From: a virus
Taxonomy: Duplodnaviria; Caudoviricetes
Length of the DNA: 64,000 bases
IMG/VR virus record: IMGVR_UViG_3300028048_000001
Span: 32,001 to 96,000 of that record
Direction: 5' to 3' (one strand)
In this document: positions 1-17,522 of the stretch, piece by piece
How positions within the stretch are numbered: position 1 is the stretch's first letter
Layout of the letters: each line of letters begins with the position of its first letter
Position numbers and translations under genes: made by a program
Notes under the pieces: generated by a model
Database searches by the model: none
The model's input: the letters and a program-made list of their open reading frames with translations, nothing else
What the model was told of the DNA's origin: nothing

Positions 1-263
1 GTTGAGACTATATCTTCCTATACAATAAATATATAGGCACGCCCATTTTGAATTTGCTTAAATTCTCAAGAGGTACACTCATCTCTCTTTAGTCGTTGAA
101 CCTTCTTCTGTTCTAGAAGCTTGGCTGCTGATCATCCAATCCTTAATAGTGTAACTATATCAAAATCCTATTATGGTTTGCCATTTATATATCCCTATAT
201 AAATTTAGTCATTAAGGCTCTAAGGATTTTCCAGCAATTAGAGCGTGTTAGGCAATGTTATTT
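1..263 (-). mobile_element. Group I intron 2 (IA-like) in non-virion RNAP beta' gene; 3' end lies beyond the window edge
   Basis: Minus strand: 5' splice site after GAT GGT (DG) with P1 GGU/GCC; core elements AAUUGCUGGAAA (P, ~228-240), AUCAGCAGCCAAG (Q, ~119-133), GAAGGUUCAACGACUA (R, ~90-105), GAAGAUAUAGUCU (S, ~5-17); P3 ACGCUC/GGGCGU. No ORF in the visible part. Confidence 0.9.
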
Positions 264-369
264 ACCATCGAAATCTGCTGCCAACAAAGGCAAAGGTTGA
301 AGGGGAACTGACATTGTATATGTTTCTGTAAATCCTACGCAAAACATACTTAATATACTTCCATAACTA
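264..369 (-). CDS. rpoC: Exon 2 of non-virion RNAP beta' subunit (catalytic ADFDG[D] motif); not in the ORF track
   Basis: Translates to SYGSILSMFCVGFTETYTMSVPLQPLPLLAADFDG. Joined to exon 1 after NRNPTI it gives NRNPTISYGSI...AADFDG, the conserved beta' region. The 5' boundary is uncertain by a few nt. Confidence 0.85.
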
Positions 370-8827: not shown

Positions 8828-11434
8828 TTACTCCCTTCCTCTTAATCCAGAAACCGGTTCCATAGGAATTTTACTTCCTTTTCTAGCAAGACCATAATAA
8901 ATTTCTTGCCTTTTTCTTTGTAAATTCTTTTGAATTGTAAGTAAAGCTCTATATTTCTTAGTAGAACCAGTAGACTCTGCTCTTTGAATTTCTCTATCTA
9001 ATACTTTTAATTCAATATCTATTTCATCTAATATTTGCATTTTTTCTTTTCTTGAAGTATAAGCAGATTTAGCCCACATTACTATAGGTCCTAATACTGC
9101 TAGTGTAGCAGCACCAACACTAGCTCCTGCTGAAGTAGCAACTCCAGCAACAGCACCTATACCGGCCCATGTTATAAGAATTTTTATAGATTTAGAAAGA
9201 CTTCTTTTTACTTGTCCAGTGATAATTTCTTCTCTATAATCTGTAGATAATCCATTTTCTATATTTTTACAGAGATGATTAAATTCCATATCAAGATCTC
9301 TAGATAATTCTTTTTCTTTAGTGGATAAATTTTTTAATTTACTTTTAACACCTGTCCATGCTAATTTAAAATCATTAAGAGACAACGGTTTCTTTTCTGG
9401 TTGTTTATATTGTTTATTTTCTTGATCAGATTCTGTATTATTTTTAATATTATTTTTCTTTATATCTTTAGTATTATGAGCAGTATTATAATCTACAGCT
9501 CCAGGTGTTTTCATAGAATTTTTTATTTTATTTGCAGGATTAAGATCATTAACAGCAGATTTTAAATTTACTTTAGCTCTATTAATTGCATCTTCATTTA
9601 TACCCATAACTTGAGCACAGAAATTTAATCTTAAATTATGATCTTCATAAATATCAAAAGGCTCTTTGTCTTTATTATAACAAATATATTTGATATAATT
9701 ATATCTAGGATTTGCTTCTTCTTTACATAATTCTACAAAATCTGTAAATATATTATCATCAGATTCTAAGTATGGACTAAGGATTTCATAAACCAATCCA
9801 GCTTCTTCTGCAGTAATTGTACCAGCATACTTTCTATCATGTAGTTTATCAACAATAGCAAGAATAGGGGTATCAATTAAGTTTTCAAGAAGATTAGTTG
9901 TTTCATTTAAATTACAAATTAAAGATTTTTCATATGTAGTAAATCCTTTATTTAATTTTTGATTTTCTGATATAATTACATCATATTTACTTCTTAAATT
10001 AATATCAAAACTATTTTCTCCAAGAGTATAATATGCATAAGAATCTCTATTATAAAGTATATTATTAAGACAATTAACAGTAGTATTTACAAAATTATAT
10101 GCTTCTTCTATAGAACCTTCATAATTATAAGATGCAATATTTGTAGAAATATGATTATTAGCATCTATATAATTCATAATATTATCATCATTAATATCAT
10201 CTTCATCTCTTTTTATTCTATGAATATTAAGAGGAGATTCTTTTGCAGAAGTTTTCTCTATAGTAGATAAGAAATCTCCAGCTGTTTGAGAATCTGTAAT
10301 AAGATTATTTATCTTGAATGGATCAATTTCATTAGAAGTAAAAGATACTCTTTCTTTATTACCATCAGCGTAATAAATATCGTTATTTATATCGGCTTCC
10401 CAAATATTAGTAAGATTTTCTACCAAACTATCTGTATCTTGAATATTATTCTCTTTAATAATATTTATTATATTATGTGCTTCACTTCCAGATACAAATT
10501 CTAAATTTTCAAAAATAGTTTTAGGATCAAAATCGATATTATTAATTTTAGTAAAATCATTAATAATATTATTAATTTCTGTAAGGGCAATAATATCATT
10601 AAGATTAGATTTTGCAATTTCTATAAGAGAATCTATAGATTTATTAGAATCTAACTTCCATCTATTAATCCTATCCATCCAATAAGAACTGTTTTTATTA
10701 GAAGATTCTGTTAAAAAACTGATATTTTTATCAGATGCTAAAGGTAAAACTCTAGATTCTTCTATAGCTCTTTTATAAGAATTAATATCTTCTTTTGTAT
10801 TACTATCTCTTAATAAAAAATAATTAGTTACATTTTCTACTATATTTTCTACAGGAATTTCTATTCCTTCTGAATAACATAAATAAGAAACTTCTTCTAA
10901 TACAATATTCATTTTAACAAAAGGAGATAAAGTATAAGTATCTACTTTTTCACAAATAGAAAATATTTTTTCTTTATCTGATTTTGCTTTATTAGAAAAA
11001 GATTCTAATTTAAATTTTTTAGATAAATTTTTATGATTTTTAATAATTCTATCTATTCTTTTATACATTTTAGCAGTTTCTACTAATCTATCAATATTAA
11101 TATCTCCAATATTAGAAGATCTAATAATATCAAGACAATCTCCAAGATTAGCATTCTCTACTAATGGAATAATATCATTAATAACCACTTGACAATATTT
11201 TTCAAGCAATTCATAATCATCTTTTTCATATAAAGATTCAAGAACTGAAATTGCAGATTTGTAATCTGTACATGAATTAAAGAAATTTTCTAATCTCCAT
11301 TTATATAGAGACTTATTAGAATCATCAGATAAATAATTAATATCATAATTAGATGATTCTGCAATACTATTTCTTTTTTCAAGATATCTTTGTCTCTTAT
11401 ACACGTACTTTAAATTTAATGGTTTACTAACCAT
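8828..11434 (-). CDS. Putative virion head (internal/core) protein
   Basis: In the capsid operon behind a late promoter; many hydrophobic-X-E sites; C-terminal small-residue hydrophobic segment plus coiled coil. Confidence 0.55.
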   Translation of the reverse strand: MVSKPLNLKYVYKRQRYLEKRNSIAESSNYDINYLSDDSNKSLYKWRLENFFNSCTDYKSAISVLESLYEKDDYELLEKYCQVVINDIIPLVENANLGDCLDIIRSSNIGDINIDRLVETAKMYKRIDRIIKNHKNLSKKFKLESFSNKAKSDKEKIFSICEKVDTYTLSPFVKMNIVLEEVSYLCYSEGIEIPVENIVENVTNYFLLRDSNTKEDINSYKRAIEESRVLPLASDKNISFLTESSNKNSSYWMDRINRWKLDSNKSIDSLIEIAKSNLNDIIALTEINNIINDFTKINNIDFDPKTIFENLEFVSGSEAHNIINIIKENNIQDTDSLVENLTNIWEADINNDIYYADGNKERVSFTSNEIDPFKINNLITDSQTAGDFLSTIEKTSAKESPLNIHRIKRDEDDINDDNIMNYIDANNHISTNIASYNYEGSIEEAYNFVNTTVNCLNNILYNRDSYAYYTLGENSFDINLRSKYDVIISENQKLNKGFTTYEKSLICNLNETTNLLENLIDTPILAIVDKLHDRKYAGTITAEEAGLVYEILSPYLESDDNIFTDFVELCKEEANPRYNYIKYICYNKDKEPFDIYEDHNLRLNFCAQVMGINEDAINRAKVNLKSAVNDLNPANKIKNSMKTPGAVDYNTAHNTKDIKKNNIKNNTESDQENKQYKQPEKKPLSLNDFKLAWTGVKSKLKNLSTKEKELSRDLDMEFNHLCKNIENGLSTDYREEIITGQVKRSLSKSIKILITWAGIGAVAGVATSAGASVGAATLAVLGPIVMWAKSAYTSRKEKMQILDEIDIELKVLDREIQRAESTGSTKKYRALLTIQKNLQRKRQEIYYGLARKGSKIPMEPVSGLRGRE

Positions 11435-11501
11435 AATTTAGAGCCCTTTCATATAGGATATTAATATAAAGTTAAATTTTAGATATTTAAAGAAAAATAT
11501 A

Positions 11502-11606
11502 AAAAATAAATCCCCATAGAGTTTTTTACTCTATGGGGTTAAGGAGAAATAATGTTCGCTGATAAGAAAAATCAGCGATGAGTGATAAAATGATATATTC
11601 TATCAT
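11502..11606 (-). ncRNA. Candidate sRNA A exposing an anti-SD/anti-AUG sequence
   Basis: Early-type promoter (11604-11626), 5' AU hairpin, hairpin TCGCTGAT/ATCAGCGA, single-stranded CAUUAUUUCUCCUU, terminator CCCCATAGAG/CTCTATGGGG plus U-tract. Confidence 0.6.
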
Positions 11607-11617
11607 TATTATAATAT

Positions 11618-12694
11618 TTAATTGAATTTATATATACTTTCACTGATTCTATCAGGTGTTACACCAAAATCTTTTTCATTAATCATATTATTTCTATGTA
11701 TATATAGATTTGCTCCAAATTGTTTGATAAATTCTTTTATTTGTTTCATCTTTTCATCAGTTCCAAATTCATCATTATCTGGATATACATGTACATCAAA
11801 GAAAAAAATTTCATAAGATACAATCAAATGAGTTATAAATCCTAAATAGCTACTTCCAGTAATAGCAGCAAATATACCATCTTCATATCTTCTTAAATTA
11901 TATTTTATTGATAATATATCAAACGGACCTTCTGCTACATGAATTTGTATTTTCTTTGGTATAGTTAAATCTATATTTGCTGGCATAACATACATTTTTT
12001 CTGTATTATCTATTTTATTATGTATATTATAATTTATATATCTTTTATCTATGCCTTTATATAAAATTCCTTCATTATACATTCTTCTTAAATTTACAAA
12101 ATTATTATCTAAAGATAAAAATCCAACGAAATTATCATTTAAAGAATTTATTATATTTATATGTCTTGTATAATAAGAATTATTATTTGTATTCATATTG
12201 TTCGATATATTATATCTATTATAATCTAATAAATCTTTTAAATTTAATATAATTTTTTGTTTTAAGCATTCTTCTATTGTTAATTCTACACCAATTCTAT
12301 TTTTAATATATTCAATTTTCTTATAAGCAAGATTTATATTATTTACATGATTATATATTGGATAATGAAAAGAATTATATCCTTTAAATTTATTATTAGA
12401 AATAGCTTTATTTATTAATTTATCAGTTTCTATTGCTATTTCTGGATTATAAATTCCCCATTCTATAAGTGTTTTACTATTTATAACACCAGATATTTGA
12501 CATTTAAAACAATGATATACAGGGCAATCATCTTTATCTTGTGGAATATGAATATACATATGTCCATGAGTTATATCTTTTGAATCCCCACATGAACGAC
12601 ACCTAACAATTATTTCACGATTTTGACTAGCTAATTTTGCTTCTGGAAAATTAGATATTATAAATTGAGCAAACTGCTCTCCAAATTCAAACAA
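11618..12694 (-). CDS. DNA primase (Zn-finger + TOPRIM), TTG start
   Basis: RCRSCGDS...H.Y...YHCFKC zinc finger; VAEGPFD and YPDND TOPRIM motifs; KDFG. Confidence 0.85.
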   Translation of the reverse strand: MFEFGEQFAQFIISNFPEAKLASQNREIIVRCRSCGDSKDITHGHMYIHIPQDKDDCPVYHCFKCQISGVINSKTLIEWGIYNPEIAIETDKLINKAISNNKFKGYNSFHYPIYNHVNNINLAYKKIEYIKNRIGVELTIEECLKQKIILNLKDLLDYNRYNISNNMNTNNNSYYTRHINIINSLNDNFVGFLSLDNNFVNLRRMYNEGILYKGIDKRYINYNIHNKIDNTEKMYVMPANIDLTIPKKIQIHVAEGPFDILSIKYNLRRYEDGIFAAITGSSYLGFITHLIVSYEIFFFDVHVYPDNDEFGTDEKMKQIKEFIKQFGANLYIHRNNMINEKDFGVTPDRISESIYKFN

Positions 12695-12763
12695 TTATTT
12701 TACCCCCTTTCACATTTATAATATTTATATGAAAGGATATTTAATTTTCTTCTTTGAATCTCA

Positions 12764-13141
12764 CTATAAAAATATCATTAATATTAATATTAATAAAATA
12801 CAAAGTATAGTAGATTCTACTAATAATATCCAAGTATTATATAATTCATATAATGTAAGTATAGTCATTAAACCAAATACAAGTAATAATCCGATACTGT
12901 TATATAAAAATAATTCTAAAAAGAATTTTATTTTTAAATTATACTTATTACAACGCTTATTAATAAATGATAAGCAAATAGTTCCTATTATGCCAATTAT
13001 AAAAACAATTCCTATTGGATGAGTATAAAATTTATATTTTATGAAATAATAAATTGTACTAAATATTAATAAACAAAAATCTATTAAAAGCATACATATT
13101 AAAATTATTGAAAATTTCTTTAAATTATTTATAATTTTCAT
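12764..13141 (-). CDS. Putative membrane protein (~4 TM)
   Basis: Four hydrophobic segments; AGGAG RBS. Confidence 0.6.
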   Translation of the reverse strand: MKIINNLKKFSIILICMLLIDFCLLIFSTIYYFIKYKFYTHPIGIVFIIGIIGTICLSFINKRCNKYNLKIKFFLELFLYNSIGLLLVFGLMTILTLYELYNTWILLVESTILCILLILILMIFL

Positions 13142-13160
13142 TTTAATGGCTCCTAAAAAT

Positions 13161-13187
13161 AAAGAGAGAACATATAGTTCTCTCTTT
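13161..13187 (-). terminator. Intrinsic terminator
   Basis: AAAGAGAGAAC-atata-GTTCTCTCTTT. Confidence 0.8.
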
Positions 13188-13195
13188 ATATATTT

Positions 13196-13663
13196 TTAAA
13201 TTTCTACATCAAATCTAATTTCATTATCATTTTGCCTTGATATATTTACAGCTCTACCAGTATTTTCTGTAGATATAGATATTACCATTGGAAGATTTGC
13301 TTTAAAAAATTCTTTCATCATTGGTAATTCACATATTATGAAAAATATATCTCTATATTTTAATAATTCATTTGGCAGTATATGAGATTTAAAGTTCATT
13401 TGTGATAAAGAAAACATAAATTTAGATTTATCTGTCATTAATGAATTAATGGTTTCTCCAATATGATTCATGCCATAATCATATATTATTCTACCAAGCA
13501 TTGATACATAAAAATCATCTTTTAAATTAAAAAATACTGGAAATAATTTACCATTATCATCTTCTGTAAACATTAATCTAAATTCATCATTTTTATTAGG
13601 ATCAATAGAATTTAAATCATCTAATTGAACTGACATTTTGCTTATATCTTTTATAGAACTCAT
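13196..13663 (-). CDS. Hypothetical protein (start corrected to MSSIKD)
   Basis: AAGGAG RBS before ATG at 13663; the upstream extension in the ORF track overlaps the structured RNA. Confidence 0.75.
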   Translation of the reverse strand: MSSIKDISKMSVQLDDLNSIDPNKNDEFRLMFTEDDNGKLFPVFFNLKDDFYVSMLGRIIYDYGMNHIGETINSLMTDKSKFMFSLSQMNFKSHILPNELLKYRDIFFIICELPMMKEFFKANLPMVISISTENTGRAVNISRQNDNEIRFDVEI

Positions 13664-13688
13664 AATATCTCCTTGATAAAAAATAAAA

Positions 13689-13899
13689 ATGGGTGAGGGA
13701 GGGATCTCACCTCCCACGATAGCTTAGCAGGGTCAGACATTCTAATGCCACGTTCAATGAAGAGTCAAATCTGGCCAGATTTCCAAGGTTGAGTTATGGT
13801 CATTATTAATGAAATCCTCTTCAAAGCTTATCCTCAGAAAAACACGTTCTTCTTCTGATGCTATCTCCCTCTTGCGTCTATTACTTCCGCCATCACCCA
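13689..13899 (-). ncRNA. tRNA-like structured RNA (~210 nt) with no anticodon arm and an expanded variable-arm domain
   Basis: Acceptor-like UGGGUGA/UCACCCA; U8G9 and Leu-type D arm GCGGAAGUAAUAGACGC; stem GAUAGC/GCUAUC enclosing ~130 nt; T arm GGGAGG-UGAGAUC-CCUCCC; GC-rich island followed by a U-tract. Confidence 0.7.
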
Positions 13900-13929
13900 T
13901 TATAAATAAGTACTTATTATAATAAATTA

Positions 13930-14175
13930 TTAATTAATAAATCCTAAATTATCATTTAATGCTTTTTCAAAATCTTTAAATTTTTCATTTGTCATTGTAA
14001 TAGAAATGCATCTTTTGTCATTAAAATTACCATGTATATGAATATTTTTAAAATCTTTTGGATCTCCATCTTTCATTGAAATAATAATACTATCTGTTTC
14101 ATAACTTTCTATAGCATACAAATTTATTACTATATCATCGTTTAATCTATATAACATTTTACAAGACTTTCTCAT
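13930..14175 (-). CDS. Small hypothetical protein, paralog of 14525-14749
   Basis: YRLN...VINLY.IESY ... F..FE.A....LGF shared; AGGAGG RBS; early-type promoter. Confidence 0.8.
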   Translation of the reverse strand: MRKSCKMLYRLNDDIVINLYAIESYETDSIIISMKDGDPKDFKNIHIHGNFNDKRCISITMTNEKFKDFEKALNDNLGFIN

Positions 14176-14289
14176 TATTGATTTCCTCCTTTTGTTAAAT
14201 AATATATTTTATATCATATTTATAATATATCTTTGAAATGAATTTATAAAAATTATCCAATAGGAGGAAACTTCTATTAGTTTTATAAA

Positions 14290-14405
14290 AAAAAATAAAA
14301 TTTATTGACCCAGAGTGATTAAACTCTGGGTCGATGGGAGAAATAATGCTGACCAATTATATTGGCCTAAAATGATAATAATGATAGAATATAATATTTT
14401 ATCAT
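14290..14405 (-). ncRNA. Candidate sRNA B, paralog of sRNA A
   Basis: Early-type promoter (14403-14426), 5' AU hairpin, hairpin GGCCAAU/AUUGGUC, single-stranded CAUUAUUUCUCC, terminator GACCCAGAGT/ACTCTGGGTC plus U-rich tail. Confidence 0.6.
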
Positions 14406-14524
14406 TATTATAATATCTAATTGAAATTAGATATAACTTCACTAATTTTATCTGAAGTTATATCATAAAAATTTATTTATTACATACTTCTACTATCTCT
14501 CACAAATAATATTATTTTTTTATA

Positions 14525-14749
14525 TTAGTTTTCTTTTTCATATCTTTTAATATAAAAACCTAATGTATTTTTAATAGCATCTTCAAACTCATCAAATTCT
14601 TCTTTTGATAAAAATACTACAATTGTATTTTCGAAACCCATTTTTATTTCAAGTCTTATTTTATTTAATTCTGTAACACTATACATATAAGATTCTATAC
14701 CATACAAATTTATTACATTCATACTATTTAATCTATACATTATGTACAT
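14525..14749 (-). CDS. Small hypothetical protein, paralog of 13930-14175
   Basis: Shared motifs as above; AAGGAG RBS. Confidence 0.8.
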   Translation of the reverse strand: MYIMYRLNSMNVINLYGIESYMYSVTELNKIRLEIKMGFENTIVVFLSKEEFDEFEDAIKNTLGFYIKRYEKEN

Positions 14750-15842: not shown

Positions 15843-17441
15843 TTAACACATTAAAATGAATGTTTCTACTTCTTCTATGATAATATTAATAGCTACTGTT
15901 TCCAATCTTTTTCCATTTATAGTAGGGTCTAAATCAACAATACTAAAATCCGATGAAATTATTGTTGCAATGATACTAAGAATATTATCAATAATATTTT
16001 CGTTTTTATATTTTTCTAATATTCTTGGATAAGAAGGAGAAGCTTCCACTAAGATTTTCTCTTTCTTATTTATAGTTTTTCTGCTTACAAGCTTTTCAAC
16101 TTTTCCAGATATAATATAAGGAAGAATAATCATGTTTTTACTTTTCAAAATCTTTTTAGCAGCGATAATTAATTTTACATATTCTTCTCTATTAATAGAA
16201 TGAATACTTTGTGTGTCTTTAAACCATCTATAAAACATTGAGAATATTAACTGTTTCTGGAATGGATTAATAGTGTAACCACCTTCTGGAGTCATTAATA
16301 CATTTCTCATATAAAGATCAATCTCTAAAGGATCAAATGGACCAAATTGAACTTCAATATTTCTCATGCAAACTTGTCCATTAATCTTATTCTGAAGATA
16401 TAACCCTTCATTCATTCTAATCAGATTGCTTTCAAATTTATCAAAATCTGATATAGAATCGTTATCTCTTTTTGATGAAGATATTGGAACATATGAAAAT
16501 TCAAATGATATATCTGTAATCTTATATGATGTATTTTTTCTAATACTTGCATAATTAAAACTAATAATATTTTTATCAAAAGTGTATTTCGGCATAATAT
16601 TAAGAATTATATTTTGTACCGAATCGGTAGAGTGAGTAGTAATATCTATTGATCTGATATCTTGCTTAATCCATATACCTTGATTATTTTTCTGATTAGC
16701 TATTACATTAGTATATGCAGTATCATATAATTTAGAATATATATCAATAGAAGTTTCCATATGAAGTATTCTATCATAAAAACTTAGCAGATAATCATCT
16801 ATATTTATATCTAATTTATGCATATAAGCATAATTAGTTAATAATGGTATACAAAGATCCATAATTATTGACATTTTATGTAATAATTTTGCATGTTCAT
16901 TTGTATACTGTAATGATGGGGATTTAATATTTGTATAATTTAAAACTTGATAATAATTATCATCAACCATCTGCTGAACTTTATTTGCTATATTAGAGTA
17001 TATAATATATCTTTCCATATCATAGAAAAACATTTCTATTGGATAAGATAAAACTTCAAATCTATCTATCTTAGATTTCATAGCAACTAATATAGATAAA
17101 TATTCATTATCTGTATCATAATAATTACAAAAATAATTTAAATATTTAAAAAGGTGCTCTCTCATTGCTACAGAATTGTAGCATTTTTTTGTTGATAAAA
17201 TAAATTTATTAAAATTATCTCCAAGACCAATAGATATATTGAAGTAAACACTTAAAGGTGCTATAAAAAATCCAGGTCTACAACTTATTATTACCTCTTC
17301 CATATCTTGAGGCCACCATTGGTCTACAGGAACAAATTTTCTTCCTTGATTCGATTTTGATTTTCTTTCTATCCTGTCCATAAAGTATATGGCAGGAACT
17401 TTCCCTTCTGTTATTTTATTAATGTCACTCATGTCGCACAT
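15843..17441 (-). CDS. Non-virion RNAP promoter-specificity (sigma-like) subunit, AR9 gp226 homolog
   Basis: Collinear with AR9 gp226 as recalled: LQYT....K.....S..M...IP.L; KLY...Y..V.........IW; I.PK......IS; E.NL.R..(E/Q)G; C-terminal EEV. Lies near a chaperonin, as gp226 and gp228 do in AR9. Confidence 0.8.
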   Translation of the reverse strand: MCDMSDINKITEGKVPAIYFMDRIERKSKSNQGRKFVPVDQWWPQDMEEVIISCRPGFFIAPLSVYFNISIGLGDNFNKFILSTKKCYNSVAMREHLFKYLNYFCNYYDTDNEYLSILVAMKSKIDRFEVLSYPIEMFFYDMERYIIYSNIANKVQQMVDDNYYQVLNYTNIKSPSLQYTNEHAKLLHKMSIIMDLCIPLLTNYAYMHKLDINIDDYLLSFYDRILHMETSIDIYSKLYDTAYTNVIANQKNNQGIWIKQDIRSIDITTHSTDSVQNIILNIMPKYTFDKNIISFNYASIRKNTSYKITDISFEFSYVPISSSKRDNDSISDFDKFESNLIRMNEGLYLQNKINGQVCMRNIEVQFGPFDPLEIDLYMRNVLMTPEGGYTINPFQKQLIFSMFYRWFKDTQSIHSINREEYVKLIIAAKKILKSKNMIILPYIISGKVEKLVSRKTINKKEKILVEASPSYPRILEKYKNENIIDNILSIIATIISSDFSIVDLDPTINGKRLETVAINIIIEEVETFILMC

Positions 17442-17522
17442 TTCTCCCTAATGCACAATATAGTTAATAAGTTATACTTTTTCAAGTATCATATTTATAA
17501 TATATATCTATTATAAATTTTA

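Follow-up and report, generated by a model that had tools for sequence, protein, structure and literature searches.

A candidate early small RNA gene in two copies in an AR9-like jumbo phage and its predicted pairing with a polymerase subunit message

Background

About 100 nt with no open reading frame on the minus strand lie between a perfect early-promoter motif and a terminator in the genome of a cattle-gut jumbo phage, which raises the question of what such a short unit (cassette B) produces, on what it may act and from where it was acquired. The phage is uncultured and AR9-like, and its record of 274,241 bp has direct terminal repeats and a G+C content of 26.6%. The window, that is the whole stretch of DNA that was analysed, has a length of 64,000 nt and represents bases 32001-96000 of this virus record. 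The primase of the phage is about 30% identical to primases of Staphylococcus, Bacillus and Yersinia jumbo phages, and comparison of the region with GenBank phages by blastn gave no match. The initial annotation had described cassette B as a diverged copy of another anti-ribosome-site cassette (A), in which the RNA structure and a short seed are under selection. In AR9, the injected virion polymerase reads early promoters with the consensus AAATATATATTAT-N6-G(+1) (PMC5312081). Promoter recognition by the late polymerase of AR9 requires its gp226 subunit (PMC5449584).

Results and Discussion

Organisation of the cassettes

The genes around cassettes A and B are all located on the minus strand, and the coordinates of all the parts of cassette B named in the initial annotation were verified on this strand. 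The RNA B unit occupies 14403 to about 14288 of this strand, in the order promoter, weak 5' hairpin, GC hairpin, unpaired CAUUAUUUCUCC and terminator. The features of both cassettes in window coordinates are as follows.

14417..14468, minus strand: primase 3' end remnant, non-coding, 52 nt; reads ..YDITSDKISEVISNFN followed by stop; closest to the L187/L207-type primase tail
14400..14416, minus strand: early (virion RNA polymerase type) promoter ATATTATAATAATGATA; ATATTAT-N6-G, predicted start G at 14403
14383..14403, minus strand: 5' AU hairpin of RNA B; weak, with an A.C mismatch where the relatives have G-C
14351..14367, minus strand: middle GC hairpin GGCCAAU-AUA-AUUGGUC; 7 bp, one G.U pair
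14337..14348, minus strand: unpaired tract CATTATTTCTCC (tract in the RNA as given above); unpaired probability 0.98 in B
14288..14332, minus strand: intrinsic terminator; 10-bp GC-rich stem GACCCAGAGT/ACTCTGGGTC at 14332..14307, U-rich tail starting AAUAAA
14257..14280, minus strand: second terminator-like hairpin, decayed; perfect in L007, L187 and L207
14212..14228, minus strand: second early promoter; serves the 81-aa gene 13930..14175, 37 nt before the gene start
11500..11617, minus strand: cassette A, paralogue of B, directly after the primase stop codon; predicted RNA from 11604 to 11500
11462..11473, minus strand: AR9-type late promoter AACTTTATATTA; AACT-N6-TA, fits AAC(A/T)-N6-TA; behind A, upstream of the 868-aa gene

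The layout of cassette A (11617..11500) has the same order of parts as that of B, as had been stated earlier. By analogy with AR9, we infer that transcription starts at 14403 for RNA B and at 11604 for RNA A. The AU hairpin described earlier is present, but a part of it as drawn lies upstream of the likely start and the hairpin is weak in the RNA. The U-tract of the B terminator is interrupted. As a second early promoter is situated behind B, RNA B forms a separate transcription unit. The late promoter behind A is kept in relatives down to 45% primase identity.

Cassette B is flanked by two minus-strand genes of 81 aa (13930-14175) and 74 aa (14525-14749), which are paralogues with common N- and C-terminal motifs; neither showed a family match in Pfam or PHROGs. 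A conserved non-coding element of about 210 nt, GC-richer and also found in L005, L007 and L009, was observed at 13690-13912 of the window (minus strand), upstream of a 173-aa gene. The sole Rfam match at gathering score in the window was a group I intron at 1-302 (minus strand, 54.5 bits), which is cut by the window edge.

The promoter motif fits the AR9 early promoter rule. Allowing up to one mismatch, the genome contains 21 copies of it and the reversed control none, and nearly every copy precedes a gene of the same orientation by 25-100 nt. Of roughly 35 intergenic early promoters, about 5 are followed by a terminator ahead of the next gene, and among these units only A and B are long. Terminator-like sites numbered 12 in 10 kb against 1.2 expected. 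The exact 12-mer CATTATTTCTCC is present three times in the 274-kb genome and is absent from the reversed control. The cassette count proposed earlier for the whole genome was obtained with a covariance model, which finds only A and B here and one cassette in the complete relative genome G001. Another match of the model, at genome position 190965, was rejected because it covers the last part of a coding region together with a terminator. An exact pattern of promoter plus tract searched in IMG/VR gave 1 match, an unrelated real gene start, while a looser pattern gave 117 matches, mostly by chance, the real ones being the known relatives only.

The third copy of the 12-mer belongs to a non-coding stretch of about 230 nt flanked by plus-strand genes (L003:1405-1661, plus strand, equal to genome 133273-133529). 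This unit begins with an AR9-type late promoter AACA-N6-TA, ends in a terminator and contains a second anti-start box, CATGGATAAGGCCTCC; G001 retains both boxes in place with different spacers. Outside the window, CAUUUUUAUUUUCUCCCA (genome 232930-233120, minus strand) lies directly 5' of a terminator behind a minus-strand gene and appears to be another anti-ribosome-site unit.

Conservation and RNA structure

Relatives were collected as metagenomic primase homologues, of which there were many, by a protein search with an alignment as query, and their contigs were fetched; a search of the locus with a single protein found no relatives. Eight further distinct versions of the cassette were obtained (L005, L206, L007, L185, L187, L207, L009 and L013), all directly 3' of the primase stop codon and accompanied by primases 69-76% identical to that of this phage. 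Two relatives with 73% primase identity, L186 and L292, have a plain terminator in place of the cassette, and no cassette was found after the primase gene of AR9 and more distant relatives. The tract UAUUUCUCC is invariant in all ten versions (A, B and the eight relatives). The three bases before it are CAU or CAC, with one U missing (CA) in L005 and L206. The middle hairpin is represented by four unrelated sequence types.

Each version folds on its own into three hairpins with z of -4.9 to -8.2 (B -6.1, A -8.2). An alignment made by MAFFT supported the terminator only, and a covariance model was therefore built for realignment. In the resulting alignment 95.6% of the cells at paired positions were paired against 77.9% in shuffles, a value reached by 0 of 500 shuffles, though these figures lean towards structure because the alignment was fitted to the model and consists of ten related sequences with only four stem types. 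Changes on both sides were seen in 19 of the 26 pairs, and controls with slid partners gave 33-44% paired. All three stems vary across the versions and remain paired, with the tract invariant, so that the structural alignment proposed earlier came out in favour of the structure. The homologues retain the structure and the tract and not the stem sequences, in accordance with the earlier suggestion of selection on RNA structure plus a seed. The accompanying statement that the stems of A and B differ and still pair was correct for the pairing, but the terminator stems share the stem top AGAG...CUCU.

The conserved tract is exposed, with an unpaired probability of 0.87-0.99 in eight of the ten versions, and is half buried (about 0.45) in L005 and L206. 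The sense fold was stronger than the antisense fold in nine versions out of ten, the exception being B. The G-U pair that had been read as favouring the minus strand is borne out, as G.U pairs are found on the gene strand in B and in the relatives (two in the middle hairpin of L185, three in that of L005 and one in the terminator of L187). We hold with high confidence that the A/B type is a real and selected RNA unit of the minus strand.

Other elements were observed behind the primase genes of relatives. In L019 (49% primase identity), positions 1110-1290 contain an early promoter after the primase and then an RNA of about 150 nt with a long closing stem, which includes CAUAUUCUCC. L015, L017, L211 and L217 (52-56% primase identity), at least some of which are from human-gut assemblies, have a long GC-richer non-coding stretch behind the primase and no cassette.

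Predicted target of the exposed tract

Pairing energies were calculated between the exposed region of the RNA and every start region, 275 here and 298 in G001, and the start regions were ranked. The ranking pointed to the leader of the gp226-like gene, in which the following site is predicted.

17433..17448, minus strand: predicted target site GGGAGAAAUGUGCGAC; leader of the gp226-like gene 15843..17441

This leader ranks 2/275 for B (-22.8 kcal/mol) and 6/275 for A (-16.5 kcal/mol), while in G001, with the RNA of that genome, it ranks 1/298 (-22.7 kcal/mol, the next best being -18.4). Its complementarity exceeds chance, as shuffles in which CUCC was kept fixed reached the observed energy in 0/120 cases for B and 1/120 for G001. 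The predicted duplex begins at the Shine-Dalgarno GGGAG and stops 4 nt short of the start codon. B matches the target of this phage better than A does (CUCCC against GGGAG), and the duplex predicted for A is modest. A bulged U is required in most of the RNA-leader duplexes; the L005-type RNAs pair without it over 12 contiguous pairs. The exact 12-mer is carried by no gene. Pairing in cis with the neighbouring ribosome sites (primase, 868-aa and 81-aa genes) gave no convincing match.

The protein of 532 aa encoded by this gene was assigned to a phrog RNA polymerase family and matches RNA polymerase subunits of phiR1-37 and AR9/PBS1, with 25% identity to AR9 gp226 over 377 aa (E 2e-13). The gene order GroEL-g227-g226-primase is common with AR9. 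The gene has an early promoter of its own at 17503..17487 here, and likewise in G001 and in AR9, so that the RNA and its target would be made simultaneously.

The bases beside the core of the tract also seem to vary together with the leader. AUGC in the leader occurs with CAU in the RNA within the same contigs of L005, L007 and L185, and GUGC with CAC in L009 and G001; in this phage GUGC faces CAU, which leaves only a G.U pair at the key position. Similarly, GAC in the leader occurs with GUC in the RNA in L007 and B, and AAC with GUU in L185. These matched changes amount to one or two substitutions in six genome pairs and represent few lineages or independent events. A related phage lacking the cassette at the primase site has the same leader, which indicates that more than the RNA shapes the leader.

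The tract may instead act as a generic anti-ribosome-site RNA, blocking or soaking up many phage or host messages of the GGAGAAAUA type with no main target. The motif GGAGAAA is frequent among the ribosome sites of these phages, being present in the start regions of 27-30 genes, so that some match is expected; GGAGAAAUA occurs in 5 start regions of this phage and in 8 of G001. Several genes can pair with a single bulge, and the host probably belongs to the low-GC bacteria and has similar sites. However, the orthologues of the other top candidates fall to ranks 39-285 in G001, bar one (rank 4, and twelfth for A), and the flanks outside the anti-SD core match the gp226-like leader and appear to change together with it. 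The start regions behind loosely defined early promoters differed from the others in pairing strength by a small amount, about the same as for a generic anti-SD control, a comparison that had no discriminating power, since early promoters were classified too loosely. An exclusively generic action is thus considered unlikely, though not negligible. The earlier name anti-RBS is justified in that an exposed anti-ribosome-site tract is conserved, but the tract is not only generic and, with its flanks, matches the gp226-like leader best. The gp226-like leader as the main target of the RNA is a supported but unproven prediction, and the RNA likely acts by masking ribosome sites.

The cassette as a possible transcription signal

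The block could also be regarded as a composite transcription signal having no RNA function, in which the hairpins end the transcription of the primase gene, the whole serves as a recombination or insulation module and the conserved tract is a protein or RNase site, or a relic. The comparable PeSL cassettes of T4-type phages are small blocks of an early promoter and a stem-loop, and gene modules are swapped there (PMC4122927, PMC2839356). The likeness is that B looks as if it moved as a module, the borders of the swapped segment coinciding with the cassette. The homology between B and L187 stops at the promoter of the next gene, and a different gene follows here; an ORF resembling a homing endonuclease adjoins the primase in one relative, and related phages lacking the cassette have a plain terminator. 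PeSL cassettes, however, occur in many dispersed copies with the terminator first, whereas the present type has the promoter first and a conserved unpaired tract, and the covariance model recovered two copies here and one in G001, which is not a dispersed family. The middle hairpin and the unpaired tract of 9 nt are moreover maintained across four stem types, and a plain terminator needs neither. With the promoter in front of the hairpins, transcription of the block must yield a short RNA. A signal devoid of RNA function is accordingly rather improbable, and the reading as a small RNA gene is preferred.

Origin and state of cassette B

Cassette B is 87% identical to the post-primase module of L187/L207 over about 270 nt, a match that starts inside the primase tail and continues through the RNA and both terminators to the next promoter. 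The identity with A is 83% and extends over only about 100 nt. This difference identifies B as an allele from another lineage. The view of B as a diverged copy, in which the contrast between A and B reflects a local duplicate under selection, had to be abandoned, B being closer to the L187/L207 module and carrying a remnant of a primase tail. B was thus placed in front of a different gene (81 aa).

Since the transfer, B has undergone two fully compensated pair changes in the terminator relative to L187, G-C to A-U and U-A to C-G. It has also gained the A.C mismatch in the 5' hairpin, and decay is seen in the second hairpin and in the CCUCC box that follows it. The wobble that had been taken earlier as favouring the plus strand is this A.C mismatch, which looks like decay and not like selection on the plus strand.

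These changes raise the possibility that B is a decaying, non-working extra copy and that only A, or neither, is functional. The mismatch, the degraded state of the second terminator and CCUCC box compared with L187/L207, and the finding of a second copy within 5 kb in none of the sampled relatives would agree with it. Against this, B matches the promoter motif perfectly and retains an intact middle hairpin and tract, its terminator changes relative to the closest relatives are compensated in full, and it gives the best predicted match to the target of this phage. Loss of function in B therefore seems improbable, and B is treated here, like A, as a small RNA gene.

A further box, UCCUCCUUUC, was observed between the second terminator and the next promoter at L005:6210-6260, L007:6190-6240, L187:4075-4125 and L207:2075-2125. 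Over 9-10 nt this box can base-pair with the ribosome site GAAAGGAGGA of the next small gene, and it could silence read-through transcripts; it is lost in B. The long open frame upstream of the primase at L187:2400-2890 appears by eye to be homing-endonuclease-like, which would be in keeping with gene conversion being frequent near the primase.

Coding potential of the plus strand

The remaining alternative is a functional plus strand, with a ribosome site and a mini-ORF serving as a leader peptide or a translated start. A consensus ribosome site followed at 4-5 nt by ATG or GTG is indeed present on this strand in 10/10 versions, and the plus-strand fold of B is slightly more stable than the minus-strand fold. 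The ORFs behind GGAGAAAUA have 9, 9, 22, 8, 8, 13, 22, 4, 1 and 1 codons in the ten versions, with no common sequence, and the length of 9 codons shared by A and B is a coincidence. The earlier argument against a peptide function is thus upheld, as neither frame, length nor peptide is conserved. In view of these lengths of 1 to 22 codons with no shared sequence, of the A.C mismatches into which the stem G.U pairs turn on the plus strand, of the lack of any plus-strand promoter or downstream gene in our searches, and of the match of the tract to the leader, by which the conserved ATG/GTG becomes a mirror of the upstream AUG/GUG of the target, the peptide reading is rejected and a functional plus strand is scarcely credible.

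Comparison with known systems

At the sequence level, the unit on the minus strand has a promoter and terminator of its own, no conserved ORF and an accessible conserved tract, the features by which a small RNA gene is recognized. By mechanism, its nearest counterparts are c4 RNA and the Gram-positive anti-SD sRNAs. In the Gram-positive sRNAs of the RsaE/RoxS type, unpaired C-rich motifs between hairpins pair with the Shine-Dalgarno sequence and an intrinsic terminator forms the end. Those RNAs are bacterial and have several C-rich motifs, while the present RNA is phage-encoded with a single CUCC, the AU-rich extension of which also covers the spacer and the upstream start codon. The RegB endoribonuclease of T4 shuts down early messages by acting at GGAG of ribosome sites; being a protein nuclease with no homology to this RNA, it offers a functional analogy only.

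The c4 RNA of P1/P7 is a structured small RNA encoded by these phages; its exposed bases pair in the region of the ribosome-binding site of a phage regulatory gene, and translation of that gene is blocked (PMC12197685). The likeness to c4 (Rfam C4) lies in the exposed tract and the predicted pairing at the ribosome site of a phage regulatory gene. There is no match in sequence or structure in Rfam searches; the cassette region 11400-14600 gave nothing relevant at E up to 5, C4 included. In addition, c4 arises by processing of an operon transcript of temperate phages and regulates an antirepressor, whereas here a jumbo phage of virulent type, an early promoter dedicated to the RNA and a predicted target in an RNA polymerase specificity subunit are involved.

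As regards setting, short promoter-to-terminator RNAs of giant Pseudomonas phages come closest. ONT-cappable-seq of phiKZ and 201phi2-1 revealed short units with a terminator close behind the start site, some of them conserved between genera (PMC11512511). These RNAs are from phiKZ-like Pseudomonas phages and mostly from 5' UTRs, and neither an anti-ribosome-site tract nor a target was suggested in their case. They were seen experimentally, whereas the RNAs of cassettes A and B are predicted from sequence.

Proposed mode of action

In the reading preferred here, A and B are early small RNA genes whose product pairs with the gp226-like leader and damps its translation, a proposal for and against which we find the balance about even. 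RNAs of about 105-115 nt would be made early from both cassettes. From the AR9 rule and the sequence, the virion RNA polymerase would start at the G of ATATTAT-N6-G and stop at the intrinsic terminator. The unpaired tract and a few flanking bases would then pair with the leader of the gp226-like mRNA, and this pairing would exclude ribosomes from it, so that the factor activating the late genes would be damped or delayed. Weaker targets may include other phage messages with GGAGAAA-type ribosome sites. Through such a predicted action, the RNA probably sets when the phage changes over from early genes to late ones.

Conclusion

The fuller picture, in which an early sRNA made by the virion polymerase is a timer on the message of the specificity subunit of the second polymerase, with a second and better-matched copy gained by module exchange, is put forward tentatively. 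To our knowledge, gene timing in jumbo phages with two polymerases of their own is thought to rest on promoter choice alone. If true, the present proposal would add an RNA-based layer of control acting on the gp226-type specificity subunit message, and the RNA would be among the first phage small RNAs of this group with a named target. The module origin of B further shows RNA genes moving between related phages as promoter-bounded modules.
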